DNA of 64,000 nt, from the NCBI GenBank assembly GCA_964016885.1, contig OZ024755.1, positions 5,580,001 to 5,644,000 of the forward strand. The letters run 5' to 3'. The stretch is from Eledone cirrhosa (lineage: Eukaryota). Positions within the stretch are counted from its first letter, which is position 1; each line of letters opens with the position of its first letter. The notes below the pieces were generated by a model. The model did no database searches. It saw only the letters and a program-made list of their open reading frames with translations, and was not told where the DNA came from. Of the stretch, positions 1,378 to 41,721 are shown piece by piece. A program made the translations under genes and the position numbers.

Positions 1378-2280
1378 ATATATATATATATACAAGATGT
1401 CCCCCAAAATGTATACACTTATTAGAATGCTGTTGAATGTGTATATGTATTCATTAAATATTCAAATATTTGGCGAAAACAAATGAATATCTGTTACATT
1501 TTGTAGGTAGTCATTATTGCAACGATTAATATTTGAAAGGTTGTCCTACGACTGTAAGTAGGAAAAAAATAATTATTGAAAATTTGATAATGATTGAATA
1601 TCGTATTCCAGTAAAATCGACAACGTTTCACGCCTGGAATATATAAATCCTAAACCAAGCTAGTATTTCATGCATTACTTTTGGTGGCGTGCTATCAGCC
1701 GTAAACCTCTCAAAAGATAATGGATTAATTTAGACTTAAAAGGTGGTGCGATATATTTAGAAAAGAAATCTTTCCCAAGCCTGAGTCGGGGAAATATTTC
1801 GTTTGAACAGATGCATTTTAATATGATTGAAATGATGAGTCTATAGAAAGCAAACTTCAGTTTTCTCATTAGTTGGAATATTTCTATAGCAGACATTCGA
1901 TTAAATATCAGCCAAAATGATGGTAAGTGTTCTCCAATTGTATTGCTTAAGAACTAAATCTTTCGAGCTGTAAGACAATAAATAATAAATATTATACGAC
2001 CGCCCTTGTATTTACTGCGTTAACCTCTCTACAAATACATATGAAAGGATATATTAAAGCTAGACTCAGATGAAACAGTTCGACTGTTCTATCTCCATGA
2101 ACGAATATGAAATTTATATTTTCAAGTGGTTCAGACAAATTAAAAGAAAATTGAAAAGAACCGCCTTCACCAACCTCTCCCCTTCTCTCTCTCACAAACT
2201 CCTACATATTCTCTGTTGTTTTTACCTTTCTATATCATTCACTCTCCCCTCTCTCTCACACACACACATACCTATATATA

Positions 2281-3091
2281 GGGAAATGGCCATGTTCGAT
2301 ATGTAGGAAAGGAACTGATATAAATTCCATAAAATGTACGCAATGTAGATCTTGGGTACACAAGAGATGTAGTGGGATAGCAGGCAAACTAACAGGTAGG
2401 GAAAACTATGTATGCAGTAGATGTACAGGAAAAGTTGGCAGTAGTAATCGCTGTGATAGACTCATTTTTCCAATGCAGGTAGGTTCTATAGAGGTGGTTG
2501 ATAGCTTCCAGTACCTAGGTGATCAGATTAGCATGGGAGTGGGGTGTTCCGGGGCCATATATCTAGATAAAGGACAGGTTGGAAGAAGTTTAGGGAGCTG
2601 CTTCCTCTGTTGACAAAGAAGGGTTTCTCCCTGCATACGAAAGGATGGTTATATGATGCCTGTGCGAGATGTGTGATGCTGCATGGTAGTGAGACATGGG
2701 CAGCAACTGCAGAGGATATGCGACAGCTGGAGAGAAATGAAGCAAGTATGCTCCATTGGATGTGCAATGTCAATGTGTGTAAACGACCAAGCATAGACGA
2801 GTTGAGAAAGAAACTGGGTATAAGAGGGATAAGTTGTGGTGTGCAGGAGAGAAGGCTGAGATGGTATGGACATGTGATGCGCATGGAGGATGACCGCTGG
2901 GTGAAGAAATGCCAGGAAGTCGCAGTAGAAGTAGACCACGAAAAACATGGGCGGAGGTAGTGAGAGCAGACCTCAGATCGCTGAAACTCACCGAGGAGAT
3001 GACGATTGACAAGTGGAGAGATGCTGTGCTGAATAGGACCCCTCCATCCCTTGCAAGCAGGGAAAAGCAGACGTAAAATGATGATGATGAT
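2281..3091 (+). mobile_element. 5'-truncated RTE-clade LINE: C-terminal ORF remnant, 3' UTR and (ATG)n tail
   Basis: Translates to GKWPCSICRKG..NSIKCTQCRSWVHKRCSG (PHD-like), IEVVDSFQYLGDQI, GWKKFRELLPLL, VMLHGSETWA and RRLRWYGHVMRM, with frameshifts. Ends in atgatgatgat. Confidence 0.9.
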
Positions 3092-3124: not shown

Positions 3125-3780
3125 AAAATAAAAACAAAGCAGATGAGATATAAAACAGAGAAAGAGGGCACAAGTTAATATATATATATATATACATATT
3201 GTTATACTTTGGGAGGGTCATGTTGCCAATAAGAAACACACGCACCAGTTGCTTTCACTTCAATTTATTATACATTTATAAATTTACAAATTTATAAATT
3301 TATAAATTTCTGGTTGGTTGGTGACGAAAAGACTATGACTATATATAAACAACTATCTGGTTGTGGAACCAACCAACCAACCAGAAATTTATAAATTTGT
3401 AAATTTATAAATGTATAATAAATTGAAGTGAAAGCAACTGGTGCGTGTGTTTCTTATTGGCAACATGACCCTCCCAAAGTATAACAATATCGGTTTCAAC
3501 ACACGATTTCAGATAAAGAATCTTGCTAAACAAATTCAGAAACGAAATATATATACATATATATACATAAATTAATAAAAACAATGAATAAAGAACAAGT
3601 TCCTTATATTAAAAAATTGATTTTTTAAATATAAGGAACTTGTTTGTTTTTATTCATTGTTTTTATTAATTTATGTATATATATGTATATTTATGTATAT
3701 ATATATATATTAACTTGGGGCCCTCTTTCTCTGTTTTATATCTCATCTGCTTTGTTTTTATTCATTGTTTTTATTAATTT
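3125..3780. repeat. Nested fold-back inverted repeats in (TA)n, probably Penelope-like 3' ends
   Basis: Near-perfect arms ~3197-3321/~3372-3490, a hairpin at ~3551-3692, and outer arms ~3127-3180/~3709-3762. Confidence 0.85.
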
Positions 3781-10546: not shown

Positions 10547-10945
10547 AAGTTTATCCCGGGTTCAATCAGAGGTAACCACAGTAAGTAAAGTACTCAATAC
10601 AAAGCAGAGTATAGATATTTAATATAGAAAAGCTTCTACAGGACTAAAACTGTTTCATTCGGGAGAAATCACCAGGAAGCTGACTGTCCAAGTAATATGG
10701 TGGCATTTATATCTTTTCTGGTGGTAAGAGAGGGTGGGGATTGAGATGGATGGAGGTCACTGGTTGATGGGTTTAAAGAAAAGGGAATTCTTTAAAAACT
10801 ATATTTAGAATAACAAAGGCAGAAAAAATTCTATAGACAGGTTCACTCTGGGGTGCCACTCCTGATTTTTAAGAAAAATCATCAGCTTCCTGATGATTTC
10901 TCCTGAATGAAATAGTTCTAGTCATGTAGAAGCTTTTCTATATAA
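10547..10945. mobile_element. Penelope-like family 1 pLTR with two opposed hammerheads
   Basis: Minus-strand HHR at ~10631-10681 (CTGGTGA variant). Plus-strand HHR agcttc-CTGATGA(10890)-tttctcctgaat-GAAA-tagttctagtcatg-TA-gaagct. Flanked by (TA)n. Confidence 0.75.
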
Positions 10946-10949
10946 TATA

Positions 10950-11140
10950 TGTGTGTGGGAAGGGTTGGATTTAGACCTGGGGGCCTCCCCCCTCATACAC
11001 ATACAAATTGGAATACACAGAAAACCCCACCATTTTACATATCAAAGTTATACATACAGGTATTAAATAAAAAAATTCTAACCATCCTAAAACTAAAAAG
11101 CCAAGCTGAGGACGTAAATAAATTGCTACAGACGGCGCTG
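10950..11140. repeat. Unclassified dispersed repeat (second copy ~42395-42590)
   Basis: Shared ggatttagacct...tatacatacaggtattaaataaaaaaattctaaccatcctaaaactaaaaagc...aaataaattgctacag. Confidence 0.7.
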
Positions 11141-11672
11141 GTATTTTGACATTCTATCTACGAAATATGCAGTAACCATCCAAAGACTATATACATACAC
11201 ACATGTAATTACAGAGAGAGAGAGAGAGAGATGGAGGGAAGAATGTGTGGATGTGGGAGACAGAGAGAATGAGATAGGAAATATATTTCCGTTTAAGATT
11301 TAATAACATCAACAATATTAAACATATTTTTGAAAACAGAAATGTGAGATTGAAATGGAGAGACAAATCCAAATAATCTTACAATGATACGAATTTGGCA
11401 AACGAAAAGCTGGCACACTCACATACTTTTCTTGTTTATATTTTTGTTGCCACCAAAGACAGGCGATAAGTTGACAGGGTTGTAAGAATGTCGGAATAGA
11501 ATGCTTCTCGATATTCCTCCGACTCACTGAGTTCAAATCCCACCAAGGTCAACCTTGCTTTCATCCTTTCAAGATCGATGAATAAGTGACCAGTTCGATA
11601 CTCAGGGCTGGTTCTACCTCAATATCTTCCTCACACACACAGGCACACATATACACAGTCATACACAGACAC

Positions 11673-12150
11673 TCATGCTTCCCGAGATTCACCAACACTA
11701 CACCTAATATTCCCCCTCCATACACACACATCATCATCATCATCATTTCATTTTACGTCCACTTTTCCCTGCTTGCAAGGGTGGGACGGGAACTGATTCT
11801 GGCTTGATTTCTACAGCTGGATGCCCTTCCTAACACCAACCTCATTTACAGTGTGTGCTGGGTGCTTTTTTGCCGTGGCACCTCCATGACCACTTTGCAG
11901 TGGAATGATAGGGACCCCAGTCCCTATCATCTCATTTCTACAGTGAGTAAACTGGAGCAATGTGAAATAAGTGCCTTGCTCAAGGAAACAATACATCACC
12001 CAGTCTGTATACACACACATGTATATCATGACTCATACACTATTCACTGCCCTGACATTTGTACATTATTCTATGTACTATACAGGCACCTTTGATGAGT
12101 TGTAGTGCACCTGAGCACTGAACACAATAATTTCATTATTATTATTATTA
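11673..12150 (+). mobile_element. CR1-like LINE 3' UTR interrupted by a SINE
   Basis: 11673-11730 and 12009-12150 match 22232-22402; (ATT)n tail. Confidence 0.8.
11731..12008 (-). mobile_element. 5'-truncated SINE family B with RTE tail and 12-bp TSD
   Basis: Near-identical to 5348-5615. TSD atacacacacat at 11720-11731 and 12009-12020. Confidence 0.85.
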
Positions 12151-12809
12151 TACACAAGCATGCAGCATTGTTTACAGAACAGTGTTCTTATTAACTCAAC
12201 CAATGTGTGGTAGATTGTCAGAATCATTAGAGCGTTCAAGAAAATATTTTGCAGTAGTTTTATGTTCTAAGTTAACTTTGTTTTCCATCATTTTGGCGTC
12301 GATAAAACAAAGCCCCACTTCAGTGTTGAGGTTGTTAGGTTCATGCTTAAATCAGAAACCATTATTAGTTGACCTTATCTCAACAGACAAATGAAAAAGA
12401 CATTCCAGACATGACCCCCCTTTGTCATTTCTTTTTCTGTCATTGTGTTTCTAGAACTCAATTACATTATACGTACTTCCGTTAGTTTTTTTTTTTTAAA
12501 GACGGAAGACTGAGATTTGACAGATATTTGGCAGCTAAATCAAGCAAACACAGTGACCTCCTGTTTGTTCATTGAGCTGTTTTATATCGACGATTGGATA
12601 TCAGGAATTGTCAAATATTCAAACCGGAAGGAAATTACTGATTCTCTCAGAGATTTACGAATATTTGCTATTTGACAAATAATGTCTGTTTTTATTTTTT
12701 ATTTTTTGGGATGGTGGGGGTGGTGGAGGGATTTCTAACCAGATGTAGTTTGGGTTTCGAAAATCAAACCCATTATATTTTGAAAAATTAAAAAGTCAGA
12801 ACCTTTTAA

Positions 12810-12995
12810 CCCTTTAGCATTTACATTATTCTATATTTACTATTGTATTTTCATAGTAAAGGCTTTATTTTACATAATTATCTCACAATATTGAATCTAA
12901 GAAATTTTGATATTTAAGAGGCTGGTTATGGCTGGTTTGAACAGAAAGAGGTGGGAGAATTCTGGCTGGATATGGCCGGTTTAAATGCTAAAGGG
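12810..12995. mobile_element. piggyBac-type MITE, copy 1
   Basis: TTAA-ccctttagcattt...aaatgctaaaggg-CTAA. Confidence 0.8.
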
Positions 12996-13239
12996 CTAAA
13001 GATTAAATTCTTAAGTAATTTTAACCAATCTGATTTATTCTTATTCTACAGCTCGGTTCATTTAATGAGCACAATTAAGATAACAGTTAGATCTCGTTAG
13101 GTAAAAATATTCAAACAAACAACATATAGGAATGAAAATGAGAGACGTTAATTATACCAACTGACAATGTCTAACGTATAACAGAAACATATTTAACACA
13201 TTTGAGTAAATAATATTATATATCTAACATAGTATAGCA

Positions 13240-13410
13240 CTCACTGTAAATGAGGCTGGTGTTAGGAAGGACACCCAGCTGTAGAAATTAATCAGGGACG
13301 GTTCTGTACGAGTGAGACATGGTCTTCCGACCAATCCCACCTCAAGTGGAACAAAACCGTCCAACCCCTGTTAGGATGGAAGATGGATGCTAAATGATGA
13401 TGATGATGAT
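13240..13410 (+). mobile_element. RTE-type tail fragment ending in (ATG)n
   Basis: Inverted homolog of 4794-4960. Confidence 0.65.
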
Positions 13411-14136
13411 TACATATATGTAACATACATGTAAGGAAAAATCTCTTCCCTATTTACATAGGAAAAACATACTGAGTTATTGATTAACCTATTTCCTTTG
13501 TGTCAAACACCACACAGACAAGGTATAGATAAGGTCGGAGTGTTTGTGAAGATTGTGTCGACTGAAGGAAGTTAGAATAAAATCGTTTATCACATATATT
13601 TATATATTTATATCTCACGCTTTAGCCTGATAATCTAATCTAAGTTGATTTCTAACTTAAGACACCTTTAAGTAGTTGAGAGACATCTACTTTCCTTTCT
13701 GAATAGAAAGAAATGTCATCTTCGTACTGATTTCACTCTAAATAATATATGAACTCATATCTGTAAGCCAAAAAAAAGTACTTGCTTGTCATACGGTTTA
13801 CCCTATACCAGGACAGCCACGATTAACTGCTAATGAGATATGAGGAAATGAGGAAAAAGATAGAGAGAAGAAGTCACCAAACTTCTACATTCTTCAGTGA
13901 CAGGTTTTCTTTATCCAACAAGCCAATATCTATCATAGGTATTGGTTTATAGTTACCAAAATAAAAAGTATGTCTTCTCATAAGAAATTTATAGAATTAC
14001 ATATTATACATAACAGGTGATGCTACATGGAAATCTCAACTAGAAGATGTTAAATACCTATCCAAAGTTCCCCACTGTGTCAGTAATAGTATCTTGTTCC
14101 TCTGGTAAAAGCACTTAACTTTCCAAAGAACCATCT

Positions 14137-14170
<34 letters not shown>

Positions 14171-14198
14171 AGTGTGTGTGTGTGTGAGTGTGAGTGTG

Positions 14199-14395
14199 TA
14201 TCCCGGGTTCAATCGAGTGTAACCACAGTAAGTAAGGTACTCAATACATAGCAGAGTAGTATAAATATTTAATATAGAAATGGCTTCTACAGGACTAGAA
14301 CTGTTTCATTTGAAGGAAATCATCGGGAAAGCCCTGATGATTTCCTTTGAATGAAACAGTTCTAGTCCTGTAGAAGCCATTTCTATATCAAATAA
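14199..14395. mobile_element. Penelope-like family 1 fold-back with hammerhead
   Basis: Palindrome ~14272-14388 centred near 14330. CTGATGA(14334)-tttcctttgaat-GAA-ACAG-ttctagtc-CTGT-A^gaagc. Confidence 0.75.
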
Positions 14396-14414
14396 ATATA
14401 TATATATATATATA

Positions 14415-14563
14415 TGAGATGTGAGAAAAACCACAGACCCTCCATCTCAACTCTAATTTTGAAAAGCAGAAGAACTGCGAAACCGGTAAAGGAACCAAAT
14501 AAATATATATATTTTTAAAAAAATAAGACTCCAGTTGCATTTTCTATTTCATCTTTTTTTTCT

Positions 14564-14565
<2 letters not shown>
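14415..14565 (+). mobile_element. Degenerate hammerhead-bearing pLTR fragment in (TA)n
   Basis: TTGAAAA-gcag aagaa ctgc-GAAAC-CG-GTA. Perfect stem II, palindromic stem III (ACCGGT), mutated 5' core, AATAAA downstream. Confidence 0.45.
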
Positions 14566-14602
<37 letters not shown>

Positions 14603-14799
14603 ACAATTACCATAATCTCACCCTCTCTCTCTCACTATATATGTATATATATATATATATGAGAGAGAGAGTATGTTTCCATATGTAAAAAAAAAAAATT
14701 ATGTCTAGACAAAGTTTATAATATGCTGGACTATATAAGGAGATACAGACGAATGAATAACCAGAGCTATGTCTGTGGAATTTTTGAAAGTTATGTAAT

Positions 14800-15100
14800 A
14801 CTGATGGATAGACTTATCTGACAATATGTCTTCACATCACGCGGAGAGTCGATATCTACCAGAAGACTCTACTGACCTTTTCTAACACCTTCATAGCTTT
14901 CCTTTGAACGTTTCTGTCAGTTTTTAACGGCAGATAATAATGTTAACCATTCTACAATATTTTAACTGAGATATTTGTGGTTGTTGTCAATGTTTGTATG
15001 AGAAGATTCATATGTTTTATTATCATAACCTATTATAAAACACTATACACTATTATAATCGATATTCTGTTAAGCACCTGAATGATTATGGAAGCATTCG
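14800..15100 (-). pseudogene. Possible heavily decayed LINE reverse transcriptase fragment
   Basis: Minus strand reads KLTETFKG...EGVRKG..ES, resembling RT motif B (GVRQG..SP). Many stops. Confidence 0.3.
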
Positions 15101-15155
15101 TGCACTGCAATGGAATGGATCTCTGTCAATATTAACTATGAGTGTTTCTTTTTAA

Positions 15156-15362
15156 CCCTTTATCATTTATATTACTCTATATATAGTATTATATTTTCAT
15201 GATAAAGGCTTTATCTTACATAATTTTTTCACATAATATTGAATCTGTGAGATTTTGCTATTTTTTATGTTGAGAATAATACCTTAACATCAGTATAGCC
15301 AGTTTGAACAGAAAGAGGTGAGAGAATTCTGGCTGGATATGACCGGTTTAAATGCTAAAGGG
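15156..15362. mobile_element. piggyBac-type MITE, copy 2
   Basis: TTAA-ccctttatcattt...aaatgctaaaggg-TTAA. Confidence 0.85.
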
Positions 15363-15567
15363 TTAACACAAAATATCTACTGGTTAACAAGGGAGGTACC
15401 CAGAATCTCCCTGAGAATTATATCAAAATGTATACATGTTTGTGGAATGTTTAACTTATGTAGATGTTAGATTTATGAGCAAGTTCCTTCGTTGATCAAA
15501 CAACTGGAACACTCATCGTGGAAACTGACTGAGATCCATTCCATTCCATTTTGCCATTGATGTTTAA

Positions 15568-15785
15568 CCCTTTAACATTTACATTACTCTATATTTACTA
15601 TTATATTTTCACAGTAAGGGCTTTATGTTACATAATTATCTCACATAATATCGAATCTATGAGATTTTGATATTTATTTTGAGAACACTACCTTAACATC
15701 AGTATGAGCAGCCAGTAATGGCCAGTTTGAATAGAAAGAGGTGAGAGAATTCTGGGCGGATATGGCCGGTTTAAATGCTAAAGGG
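15568..15785. mobile_element. piggyBac-type MITE, copy 3
   Basis: TTAA-ccctttaacattt...aaatgctaaaggg-TTAA. Confidence 0.85.
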
Positions 15786-15889
15786 TTAAAGAAACTGAGC
15801 GCCCTACCTCACTGGCCTGACAGCATTGGTTCGTTGCTTTTACTGCATCGGTTTAACAGATGATCATGTAACATTTCTAGACATTACAC

Positions 15890-16505
15890 ATCTTATATAT
15901 ATATATAGGATATATATACATATATATACATATATACTTACATATATATTCTTATATATAGATATATATACATATATATATATATACATATATACACACA
16001 TATATATTCTTATATATAGATATATATACATATATATATATATACATATATACACACATATATATTCTTATATATAGATATATATACATATATATATATA
16101 TACATATATACACACATATACATACATATATATAAACACACATATACATACGTATATATACATACATATATATATATATATATACACATATATATACACA
16201 CACATATACATACGTATATATTTATATATATATATATACACATATATACACATACATATATATACACATATATATACACATATATATACACATATACTTA
16301 TATATATATATATACACATATCCTTATATATATATATATATACACATATCCTTACATATATATATACACATATATTTACATATATATATACACATATACT
16401 TACATATATATATATACATATATATATATACACATACTTACATATATATATACACATATATATATACACACACATATATATATACACATATATATATACA
16501 CACAC

Positions 16506-16538
<33 letters not shown>

Positions 16539-16660
16539 TATACACATATATATACACACACACATACTTACACATATACACATATACACATATACACACA
16601 TATATACACATATATATATACATACATACATGCATACTTACATACATACATATATATAGT
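15890..16660. repeat. (TA/CA) compound microsatellite
   Basis: Direct inspection. Confidence 0.95.
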
Positions 16661-16896
16661 AGAACATCTGGTGAATTTAAAGGCAGGTATCTATTATAGA
16701 CCAGCAGATGTATAATATCTGTAAACGGTATATTCTCATCAAGTAATCTGGAAAGATCTTAGAACCTGCCAGCACGAGAGATGAAACATGATACAACAGA
16801 TAGAAATATCAGTTATGGGATATTACATTGACTCTTAACTTTTAAATTCAAAATTTATGCTTCAGAACACACTCATATATCCATATATATATGTAT

Positions 16897-17110
16897 ATCA
16901 TCATCATCGTTTAACGTCCATGTTCCACGCTTGTATGGGTTTGGACGGGAGTTTTCCCACTTGAGGCAAGAGTGGTAGTCATTGCTCACAGAGGACTGTC
17001 TGGCGGGTTTTCTACAGCTGGATGCCCTTCCTAACACCAACCATATTTACAGTGTGGGGCTGGGAGGTTTTTACCGTGTTGCCTACACGGCCACATTACG
17101 TGGACTGTGT
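16897..17110 (-). mobile_element. RTE-type tail fragment
   Basis: Homologous to 4794-5015. Confidence 0.7.
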
Positions 17111-17121
17111 ATATAATAGTA

Positions 17122-17310
17122 ATAATTGTTTCTACGTTTGGCACAAGACCAGCAATTACCCAGTGCATTACTGGTACTTTATTTTATCGATCCCGTACGG
17201 ATGAAAGGCAAAGTTAACCTCGGCGGGATTTGAACTCAGAATGGCAAGGGCCGTAACTATGCGTCAAAGCATGGCGTCCGACCCTCTACCGATACTGCTA
17301 ATCCATCACT
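17122..17310 (-). mobile_element. tRNA-derived SINE family A (most abundant family) with TSD
   Basis: Box A-like tagcagtatcggtaga, box B gagttcaaatccc, central gcctttcatcc..gataaaataaagtaccag, (ATT) tail. TSD tgtatataatagtaataat. Confidence 0.9.
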
Positions 17311-17421
17311 GTATATAATAGTAATAATAATAATAATATATATATATGCTACTATGGAAAAGAAATGCTTCCCTAACTATATATATATATAGATATTTCT
17401 GAAGAAGACAGTCTGATCAAA

Positions 17422-17460
<39 letters not shown>

Positions 17461-17467
<7 letters not shown>

Positions 17468-17755
17468 TATTAAGTTGTTAAACAATATTCAATGATTATG
17501 TCAAAGAATGAGTTTTACAGTAGTACGTTGATTAAATCTTAACCATTTAACATCTCAGGGTATGTCATGTATCATTATATTTTGTCTGATGAGGACGTAC
17601 TGTTGTACATCCGAAATATGTATAATAAAATGTAATTGATCAAAAGAACATCTATTTTATTAATACTTATAAATTATTTTACCGTTGAGTGCTTCCAATC
17701 TACTGTAAAATTCATTCTTTGGCATAATCATTGAATATTGTTTAACAACTTAATA

Positions 17756-17762
<7 letters not shown>
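17461..17762 (+). mobile_element. Penelope-like pLTR unit: inverted 3' end + hammerhead + 3' end, in (TA)n
   Basis: ~63-bp inverted arms at 17461-17523 and 17700-17762 enclose the HHR. Confidence 0.75.
17574..17636 (+). ncRNA. Intact type I hammerhead ribozyme
   Basis: Stem I ATTATATTTTGT/ATAAAATGTAAT (12 bp with 2 GU), CTGATGA 17586-17592, stem II ggacgtac-tgtt-gtacatcc, GAAA 17613-17616, 2-bp stem III. Predicted cleavage AUA^ after 17624. Confidence 0.75.
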
Positions 17763-17796
<34 letters not shown>

Positions 17797-17980
17797 TAAA
17801 ATAACAGATTAAAGTTTAAGCAAAGAATCGCTGCTTTCACCCTTAACGGGATCTTCTGAAACTAACAAAGTCTATCTGTGAACGCAGAAGTGAATATTTG
17901 CTCTACGGTTCTTATATATTTGATATATATTTATCCTTATCGAGCCCTCTTTGGATTTTCGTCTTCAAATTTATTATTAT

Positions 17981-18017
<37 letters not shown>

Positions 18018-18094
18018 TATATATCATCATCATCATCATCATTATCTTTGTTTAATGTCCATCTTCCACGCTAGCATGGGTTATATATATATAT

Positions 18095-18283
18095 AAGTTT
18101 ATCCTGGGTTCAATTGGGGGTAACCACACAAGTAAAGTATTCAATACAAAGCAGGGTACAAATATTTAATGTAGAAAAGGCTTCTACAGGACTACATCTG
18201 TTTCATTCAGAAGAAATTACCAGGAAGCCCTGATGATTTCTCGCGAATGAAATAGTTCTAGTCCTGTAGAAGCCTTTTCTATA
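18095..18283. mobile_element. Penelope-like family 1 fold-back with hammerhead
   Basis: Same tail as 10547 and 14199. CTGATGA at 18230; palindrome centred near 18226. Confidence 0.75.
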
Positions 18284-18299
18284 CATATATATATATGTG

Positions 18300-18445
18300 A
18301 GTTTTGGTTTCAATCGGTGGGTAACCACAGTAAGTAAAGTACTCAATACTTTAGTAGAGTGTATACAACAAATTTGATATAGAAATGGCTTCTACAGGAC
18401 TAGAATTGTTTCATTTGAATGAAACAGTTCTAGTCCTGTAGAAGC
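18300..18445. mobile_element. Penelope-like family 1 fold-back (junction in HHR stem II)
   Basis: gcttctacaggactagaattgtttcatt-tg-aatgaaacagttctagtcctgtagaagc. Confidence 0.7.
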
Positions 18446-24849: not shown

Positions 24850-25756
24850 AGATGACTGAGGTTGATAACGTAAATGTTTTGGCACTGAACCGAGTGAACC
24901 AGAACATTCTTAGAGCTGCAAGACTGGCAGAAACAGCAACATGAAGAACGACAGAGTAAATCAAATAAGCCTCGGTTAATGTAAGTATTTAATCTATCAA
25001 TTTCAGCTGACTATGAGGTCAGAACGTAAAACAGAAAATTAAAAAAATGTTGAGTAAAATAGAATTTTCTAAGAAGTTCTTCATAACTTTAAATGAAAAC
25101 GTAATATGGCTGTATGAGTGCAGCAACTGATATCTGAGATAGTTTTAAAATGATTTGCGAGATAGGTTGTTGTACAAATGGATAGTGACTATTTCAAGAA
25201 GCAGTGAATAAAATATGATGGGCTATCATAAATTAGGGATGAATGAGGTGTAACTAGGAAGAAGATATACCTGGAATAATTAAGATGCAATCATGTGTAT
25301 GTATATATATATATATATATATATATAGATCTGTATATATATATCTGTATATATATTAGTCAAGGATTTTGGCCAAACTCGAGTACCATAATCGGTTTTA
25401 TCAAGATCTGTATGATAAAACCGATTCTACAACATGTATGAACTTATCCCATTGGTAAGTGTTTCTGATTATTTATAAAACTATAAATCTACATCCCGAC
25501 ACTCTCACACACACACCAGCTATATAGTGATAACACTAATAAAGCATGATTTAGTATAAAGGTGTATATACCCCTATATATTATATATATTTATATTAAA
25601 CATGTATATAGACCCAGTCTGAGTATTTTAACGTCTGGTTATTTTACACCTCTCTCTTTCTATATATACATACATATAGGAACCAGTAAGACCCCGACAG
25701 CTGAGCTCAAGCCGTTTCGACGGCTAATTCACATATATATATATATATACATATAT

Positions 25757-41389: not shown

Positions 41390-41480
41390 TGTTTCTATAT
41401 TAAATATTTAAAACTCTGCTTTGTATTGAGTACTTTACTTACTGCGGTTACCCACGATTGAACCCGGGATAAACTTATAT
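41390..41480 (+). mobile_element. Penelope-like family 1 3' tail only
   Basis: Reverse complement of 10547-10630. Confidence 0.7.
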
Positions 41481-41495
41481 ATATATATATATATA

Positions 41496-41684
41496 ACGAG
41501 GGAAGTGTGGTAAGGAACCAGGTGGACCATAACGCACCAGAGTACTCGATACTTTGGGTAGTAGAGTGGGTAATAGGAAAAGGTTCAGGACCCGACGGCG
41601 GCAGAGCTCAAGCCGTTTGGAGTGCTATTTCTGTCCAGAAATAGCCGTCGAAACGGTTTGAGCTCTGCCATCGGGGTCCTGAAC

Positions 41685-41690
<6 letters not shown>
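41496..41690. mobile_element. Penelope-like family 2 fold-back with half-hammerhead
   Basis: Palindrome 41579-41688; homologous to 54945-55115. Confidence 0.7.

Positions 41691-41721
<31 letters not shown>

Follow-up and report, generated by a model that had tools for sequence, protein, structure and literature searches.

The window analyzed here is a 64,000-nt stretch of Eledone cirrhosa DNA (contig OZ024755.1, positions 5,580,001 to 5,644,000 of the forward strand), an AT-rich, animal-type sequence that is dense in microsatellites. Four related inserts with opposed hammerhead-like arms and one common tail lie between positions 10547 and 18445, an arrangement that had been proposed in an original prediction and that was confirmed by BLAST and alignment (E values among the four from 1e-41 to 1e-7). 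To judge from its anatomy, the family is likely the end piece of a Penelope-like element (PLE), a pseudo-long terminal repeat (pLTR) with a predicted hammerhead.

A BLAST search of the window with the first insert located the family at 10547-10950, 14196-14400, 18095-18296, 18306-18445 and 41392-41476. All four copies of the original prediction are therefore real, but it had overlooked the fifth, which consists of tail only. Copies are designated c1 (10547-10950), c2 (14199-14394), c3 (18095-18290), c4 (18303-18445) and c5 (41392-41476), with “L” and “R” for the left (long, minus-strand) and right (short, plus-strand) arm of each. The clustering implied by calling the insertions local is weak: c3 and c4 lie in one microsatellite, the fifth copy is at 41392-41476, and simulation gave p = 0.13 for three of four sites within 7.6 kb and p = 0.03 for four of five copies.

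To follow the family beyond the window, positions 10547-10885 were compared at 80% likeness with four public sequencing runs out of eight listed, comprising two contig sets (organisms A and B) and two restriction site-associated DNA (RAD) read sets (organism A). The runs are possibly not from the species of the window, since the best of them contains 45% of sampled window words. Results given below for the runs cover 24 of 688 loose-end rows, 15 of 28 joint rows and 40 of 144 variant rows. The family is abundant, with 8,208, 4,264, 5,446 and 5,240 records matched in the four runs; depth was not taken as copy number, and microsatellite-bearing reads may be filtered. At window position 10589 and its equivalents, the base carried by four of the five window copies was found in only 5-13% of run records, which reflects either another species or a locally enriched subfamily. 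A loose pattern scan of metagenomes returned 118 loci, only one of them with a weak 45-nt match (E 5e-4) that was treated as chance, and a scan of viral contigs with a 29-letter tail pattern returned no matches.

The features of the family in the window are as follows.

10548..10630, minus strand: 3′ part of the c1 long arm after the hammerhead, including the one-sided tail, to a (TA)n/(CA)n tract (BLAST, loose ends in the runs)
10631..10681, minus strand: type I hammerhead motif of the c1 long arm, core from 10675, predicted cleavage at 10637/10636, with A6G (alignment)
10682..10873, minus strand: upstream element sequence of c1, multi-copy, no open frame seen (run depth, translation)
10711-10704, minus strand: TATA box in the c1 upstream sequence (spacing, 30 nt above the A of TCAG)
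10683-10680, minus strand: initiator-like or acceptor-like TCAG (sequence)
10874..10885, minus strand: 12-nt snap-back copy in c1 of the start of the right arm’s hammerhead (run depth, folding)
10882..10945, plus strand: c1 short arm, with hammerhead at 10884-10934 and predicted cleavage after 10928, then ~15 nt that merge into (TA)n
14199..14333, minus strand: c2 long arm, tail and hammerhead to the 5′ strand of stem I, at a (GT)n tract
14333..14394, plus strand: c2 short arm from the catalytic core (14334), lacking the 5′ strand of stem I; junction hairpin of -14.2 kcal/mol
18095..18229, minus strand: c3 long arm, tail and hammerhead to the 5′ strand of stem I
18229..18283, plus strand: c3 short arm from the catalytic core (18230), same junction as c2
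18303..18419, minus strand: c4 long arm, tail and 3′ half of the hammerhead, in a (TA)n tract next to c3
18414..18445, plus strand: c4 short arm; junction hexamer 18414-18419 in stem/loop II
41392..41476, plus strand: c5, tail-only copy starting ~7 nt after the predicted cleavage site and ending at (TA)n (BLAST)

Arms, tails and junctions

In c1 to c4, a long minus-strand arm, comprising the hammerhead-like motif and ~89 nt past the cleavage triplet up to a TA/TG microsatellite, meets head to head a short plus-strand arm comprising the motif and 5 to ~22 nt. Four of the five window copies are thus 5′-truncated copies with an adjacent inverted copy. The one-sided extension amounts to 65-85 nt in all four fold-backs, with scattered short-arm ends (+5, +15, +15-20 and +22). 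Every window copy, c5 included, terminates in a TA, TG or CA tract, and loose ends place the tail ends at 10549-10554 next to TA/TG microsatellites in all four runs. Of 45 positions, 5 differ between the two arms of c1, 3 between those of c2 and 8 between those of c3, which marks the inserts as old insertions and not assembly fold-backs; their flanks are unique. A subfamily mark 3′ of stem I is common to c2 and c4. Two further observations concern the copy ends. The last 9 nt of the tail occur three times at the end of c1 (10494, 10530 and 10548) with TA/CA runs between them, possibly from an abortive start of reverse transcriptase (RT) followed by slippage duplication, and c5 faces, tail to tail across one (TA)n tract, a copy of the second hammerhead-like family described below.

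The original prediction had put the junctions at ~10884 (c1), ~14330 (c2), ~18226 (c3) and ~18416 (c4). The last three hold, at ~14333, ~18229 and 18414-18419, but the join between the arms of c1 was found at ~10873/10874, where the left arm has continued ~190 nt beyond its hammerhead into multi-copy upstream element sequence; run depth falls to zero by 10883. The segment 10874-10885 closes a hairpin on TCAG/CTGA (-9.5 kcal/mol, z = -4.0, one of 200 shuffles as good). In c2 and c3 the join is identical: the long arm extends as far as the 5′ strand of stem I, and the catalytic core is where the short arm begins. A direct partial tandem, from 10678/10680 back to 10549/10547, was seen at low depth in two of the four runs and at no place in the window; letters inside this direct joint (one contig, two reads) give the upstream sequence of the c2/c3 subfamily, which ends in CAGG before stem I, and from this we infer that the c2/c3 join is a 4-nt CCTG overlap. 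The junction hexamer of c4 is also present on both arms of c2 (14309 and 14346) and would be a 6-nt palindrome decayed at CpG. All four joins lie at least 17 nt 5′ of the cleavage site at self-complementary spots of 4-6 nt, if the putative c4 palindrome is counted, and the cleavage site is uncut in all eight arms. Random breakpoint pairs overlap by at least 4 letters in 0.8% of cases and by at least 6 in 0.1%, a comparison that overstates the case because the window breakpoints were read post hoc.

That all junctions lie at the hammerhead is partly an effect of selection, since hammerheads were the means of finding the copies and the motif takes up 39% of the typical short arm. There is a genuine pile-up, though it lies at the motif’s 5′ edge and not at the cleavage site. 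In the runs, 13 of the 15 rows listed join opposite strands, and the rows reduce to 10 distinct joints. Enrichment over the hammerhead as a whole was rejected (6 of 10 distinct joints with an end in the motif versus 63% expected, p = 0.71); 5 of 10 have an end in 10668-10684 (p = 0.06). The joint class 10630/1-10679/80, represented by six contigs in run X1 (the most there) and two reads in run X6, passes through stem I with five shared letters in one row. It can be placed anywhere over 10631-10636, the last of these positions being the base with which the cleavage product starts; annealing of stem I and a cleaved template therefore fit it equally. For the narrowly defined cleavage site the count is 0 of 10 joints; it was disregarded, given that the placement of one joint class is uncertain as far as that site.

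The hammerhead motif

The core elements CUGANGA, GAAA and UH and stems I to III of a type I hammerhead are present in the majority of the eight arms. This majority is identical to the consensus core given in the original prediction, with U at both 10.1 and 11.1, and, as also claimed there, each of the arms carries a defect: A6G in c1L, a wobble and a mismatch in stem III of c1R, U4C and a broken stem II pair in c2L, A6G and G8A in c3L, loss of the 5′ strand of stem I in c2R and c3R, and loss of the CUGAUGA half in c4. In a strict pattern scan of the window c1R passes, together with two unrelated minimal hammerheads; an Rfam scan of the window at the gathering threshold returned no matches. Two changes recur between copies: c1L and c3L share A6G (10672 and 18222 region) despite different stem I types, and c1R and c3R share a C-to-U change in stem III (10912 and 18252 region), which could be chance.

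A U-U opposition occupies 10.1-11.1 in all arms that hold both positions, and canonical pairing is absent there. The feature had been called unusual; it is real, but U10.1-U11.1 has been described in natural hammerheads (PMC3088659, in the part cited), including HHR_Amex2 of the axolotl retrozyme (PMC7229834, likewise). The variable tetraloop on a conserved stem had been taken as support for real structure. Part of that variability is CpG decay, in that the last base of the loop forms a CpG with the stem and TCCC/TCCT and CTTC/CTTT are decay pairs, but the conclusion holds on the variation in the runs. The non-CpG positions 10662-10664 of loop II vary at 5-97% across the four runs, and among the variant rows covered there is no position in stem II, stem III or the U-U. 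Stem I varies at both ends (10631 and 10681) in the runs, with phase available only in the window, and two subfamilies (c1 versus c3) preserve it through changes on one strand that are matched on the other. Since loop II varies on a fixed stem and stem I is kept by different pairs, comparison of the sequences supports a type I motif that would be under selection for structure in active master copies.

As a monomer, the majority motif folds marginally. Stem I forms, whereas stem II has a pair probability of 0.05 and stem III of 0.4, and the overall z score is 0.03; the segment of stem III and its loop reaches -12.8 kcal/mol as a self-duplex versus -1.4 kcal/mol as a hairpin. Note that PLE hammerheads have been described as needing a dimer or a protein (PMC4209133 and PMC11167929, in the sections cited); the weak monomer fold of the putative ribozyme fits such assistance.

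The 5′ edge of stem I

Most copies in the runs seem to stop within ~20 nt of the 5′ edge of the hammerhead. The ratio of depth in bin 10679-10690 to that in bin 10667-10678 was 0.12, 0.03, 0.26 and 0.28 in the four runs, a 4- to 30-fold fall that is to be read with caution: its onset is in stem II, alignments are trimmed by changes private to c1, the variable loop interrupts contigs, depth in the RAD sets depends on cut sites, and upstream sequences of diverged subfamilies could contribute. Behind 10678 there are loose ends in all four runs (114, 103, 414 and 305 records), and the two raw-read runs have others behind 10671 (515 and 476 records). Their agreement is only 0.42-0.52; they are AT-rich mixtures with no single continuation, and one consensus includes the start of a fold-back. 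Stalling of RT at RNA stems was considered as the cause of the edge and rejected by reasoning, as it would stop the complementary DNA (cDNA) at the 3′ side of a stem.

The TATA box in the upstream sequence of c1 stands exactly 30 nt above the A of TCAG, a spacing that occurs at 0.9% of unmasked window positions. Between 61% and 100% of run records read TATAAATA, so that the box is canonical in most. It is found on one upstream type only, and upstream letters of the c2 type show no clear TATA; in both upstream types the letters immediately preceding stem I are CAG.

Identity and origin of the inserts

The assignment to PLEs rests on anatomy because no RT or GIY-YIG frame was found among the 55 stop-to-stop open reading frames (ORFs) of at least 110 amino acids in the window, which were inspected by eye with no profile search. 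Six-frame translation of c1, also inspected by eye, gave no frame resembling the end of a PLE ORF. In the sections cited here, PLE insertions are described as 5′-truncated, accompanied by an inverted copy, extended on one side by a 30-40 bp tail, targeted to (TA)n and provided with a hammerhead in the pLTR (PMC8557442); as carrying palindromes at head-to-head junctions, read as self-priming, and a TATA box with initiator-like sequence in the pLTR (PMC3846280); and as arising by internal RT starts at AT-rich targets with both strands nicked and uncleaved RNA as substrate (PMC11167929). Opposed minimal hammerheads 100-700 bp apart, and for the most part single truncated motifs, are reported in PMC4209133 (cited section). 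The inserts share 5′ truncation, the inverted head-to-head copy, an extension at one end and (TA)n targets with PLE insertions as described in PMC8557442 and PMC3846280, as well as the palindromes at the inversion and the pLTR TATA and initiator-like sequence of PMC3846280. They differ in that only pLTR-sized pieces are present, with no ORF, and in that junctions are mapped here onto hammerhead stems, which is not done in the cited passages of those two papers.

With metazoan minimal hammerheads (PMC4209133, as cited) the inserts have in common type I topology, a palindromic loop III suited to dimers, dispersed truncated copies and opposed dual motifs. Helix II of those ribozymes measures 7-8 bp, with G10.1-C11.1, A9 is followed by an extra base, and there is little of a helix III; in the window motif, helix II comprises 3 bp and sits on U-U, the extra base is absent, and helix III comprises 4 bp and bears a loop of 8 nt. 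HHR_Amex2 (PMC7229834, as cited) shares the U-U at the base of a weak helix II and the firmer helix III, but it resides in 350-bp tandem retrozymes whereas the window copies are dispersed and inverted. PAc, a Poseidon element of Anolis (PMC11167929), shares an RT start ~110-150 nt after the start of the hammerhead, two start sites that bound the tail, AT-rich targets and an uncleaved RNA template. The PAc ORF begins at stem II, whereas both ATGs in the window motif run into stops, and the cited text of PMC11167929 gives no map of 5′ ends. Penelope-like families of Octopus vulgaris are listed in PMC13282606, in a part that makes no mention of hammerheads. Judged by such anatomical comparison, both the insertion anatomy and the ribozyme variant are already described, with nothing new in kind.

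Probably, then, the four inserts are dead, 5′-truncated pairs of PLE pLTR ends whose arms were joined, through self-priming or annealing of newly made cDNA, at self-complementary spots of 4-6 nt, and not at ends cut by the ribozyme. By analogy with the PLE literature, the endonuclease would nick an AT/GT microsatellite and RT would start at an internal position of the RNA: for the long arm this would be the far end of the tail, for the short arm a point 65-85 nt nearer the hammerhead. Because both arms hold an uncut cleavage triplet, the templates were uncleaved. Synthesis would in most copies stop at most ~20 nt from the 5′ edge of the hammerhead, where the reads place the ends. The cDNA end would then pair with a nearby complement, namely TCAG/CTGA in c1, CAGG/CCTG in c2 and c3, the 6-nt palindrome in c4 and stem I itself at other loci, the hammerhead being presumably the most self-complementary stretch of these 130-nt arms. 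After insertion the copies decayed, and arms now differ at 3-8 of 45 positions. The second hammerhead-like family breaks in stem/loop II in all three of its window copies, as expected if local pairing sets the site. The arms may derive from one cDNA that was copied back on itself or from two cDNAs that annealed: a single template is favored by the c1 snap-back and by subfamily marks shared by both arms, but not by the arm-specific variants common to c1 and c3.

Several points weigh against this interpretation. The c2/c3 overlap depends on one contig and two reads, the c4 palindrome requires an assumed CpG decay, and the stem I joint class, being ambiguous up to the 5′ end of the cleavage product, may mean that some ends elsewhere are ribozyme-made. 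The A6G of c1L and c3L and the stem III change of c1R and c3R are unexpected under simple copy-back of one cDNA. Regarding the PLE assignment, there is the lack of an RT or GIY-YIG frame noted above, no ORF start is visible in the tail, unlike in PAc and rotifer elements, the difference in arm length (65-85 nt, with scattered short-arm ends) is about twice the published tail of 30-40 bp, and target-site duplications are unreadable because copy ends merge into microsatellites.

For the pile-up itself, one tentative explanation from the sequence is that the 5′ edge of stem I is the start of pLTR transcription, so that RT starting ~135 nt inside would run off the cap and leave a free cDNA end to fold or join. 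This would add a cause of the pile-up to the pairing of cDNA ends and not replace it. The depth fall in all four runs, loose ends without a single continuation, the exact TATA spacing, the three of four window short arms that start at the edge and the five of 10 joints that end there are in its favor, but only one upstream type has the TATA box, the fall sets in within stem II and is in part a product of alignment trimming and contig breaks, a mix of diverged subfamily upstream sequences could mimic an edge, and the second family of the window breaks in stem II instead. In D. virilis, moreover, the promoter lacks a TATA box, and the distance to the start upstream is 46 nt plus an intron of 75 nt (PMC2377424, cited section). 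An extension of the idea, which we consider unlikely, would have RT primed ~135 nt inside an RNA capped at stem I, run off to give a strong-stop cDNA and jump to the downstream pLTR, with failed jumps folding on the hammerhead stems. The edge could also be a 3′ splice site, copies of spliced RNA parting from the genomic sequence at stem I’s 5′ end, as with the D. virilis Penelope intron, which ends at the 5′ end of helix I (PMC4209133, cited section), and the CAG that closes both upstream types would suit an acceptor. A spliced exon 1, however, predicts one shared continuation and not AT-rich mixtures, c1L retains unspliced upstream sequence, and c2 and c3 go on into a fold-back and not an exon; this alternative is very doubtful.

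The notion implied by the original prediction, that hammerhead cleavage makes the ends that seed fold-backs, appears improbable. It could draw on the best-supported joint class of X1, placeable at 10636, and on the start of c5 ~7 nt after the cleavage site, but the eight window arms span an uncut site, the four junctions lie well 5′ of it, and depth rises across it (1752 to 2702 in X6, 1513 to 2447 in X7), so that cleaved templates are not the main source. PAc ribozyme mutants, in addition, insert normally in vitro, and no RNA ends were seen at the PAc site (PMC11167929, cited part). Later deletion within longer palindromic inserts is quite unlikely as the origin of the junctions: loss between the identical hexamers of a c2-like copy would yield the c4 junction, and c2 and c4 do share their subfamily mark, but the depth fall in all runs, the identical c2/c3 junction in different subfamilies and the c1 snap-back would be left unexplained. 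Highly improbable is a non-autonomous tandem retrozyme with a circular RNA intermediate and a ~170-nt monomer. Retrozymes derive from PLE pLTRs (bioRxiv 10.64898/2026.07.22.740005, cited part) and a head-to-tail joint with 34-40 letters between was seen in two of the four runs, but at a depth of 6 and two reads versus thousands of matched records; none of the five window copies is tandem, and copy ends do not match the cleavage site. A fold-back artefact of assembly or library, which near-palindromic centers might suggest, can practically be dismissed given the divergence between arms, the unique flanks and the inversion joints and fold-back signature in independent short-read runs.

Several other elements occupy the window. 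The second hammerhead-like family (25661-25730, 41495-41705 and 54945-55134; two fold-backs and one plain truncation) has the 3′ half of the motif, a longer stem III with a palindromic loop and a ~90-nt tail to (TA)n; no CUGANGA half of this family was found in the window. A third family is represented at 17586 (plus strand) and 59605 (minus strand) by two minimal type I hammerheads that are related and look intact, of the G10.1 class with long stems I and II. A compound inverted structure lies at 3150-3750 (3196-3490 and 3547-3694), its outer flanks apparently inverted too, and broken frames at 2155-2960 (plus strand) show some resemblance to the end of an RTE-type long interspersed element (LINE) protein with a cysteine-rich finger. 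An abundant ~200-nt repeat resembling a short interspersed element (SINE) occurs at 17102-17344 and in at least ten other places, of which the pair at 57563-57777 is a direct partial tandem.

The inserts neatly exemplify an insertion pattern and a ribozyme variant that have both been described, and as such matter little. The only lead lies in the accumulation of 5′ ends at the hammerhead’s front edge, which may mark the start of the element’s RNA. No paper mapping PLE 5′ ends to the hammerhead edge or proposing a strong-stop step was found in search listings or in the passages cited, which did not include older PLE papers in subscription journals. In their cited sections, PMC2377424 states that no apparent mechanism exists for rebuilding PLE pLTRs and inverted ends, and PMC3846280 leaves the choice between sense and antisense templates undecided. 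If true, the strong-stop model would account for the regeneration of tails and pseudo-LTRs, would put the ribozyme right at the 5′ end of the RNA, and would make failed jumps a source of pLTR-only hairpins scattered through the genome. This model of run-off and jump becomes testable with a family that is abundant and ends sharply next to a TATA box.

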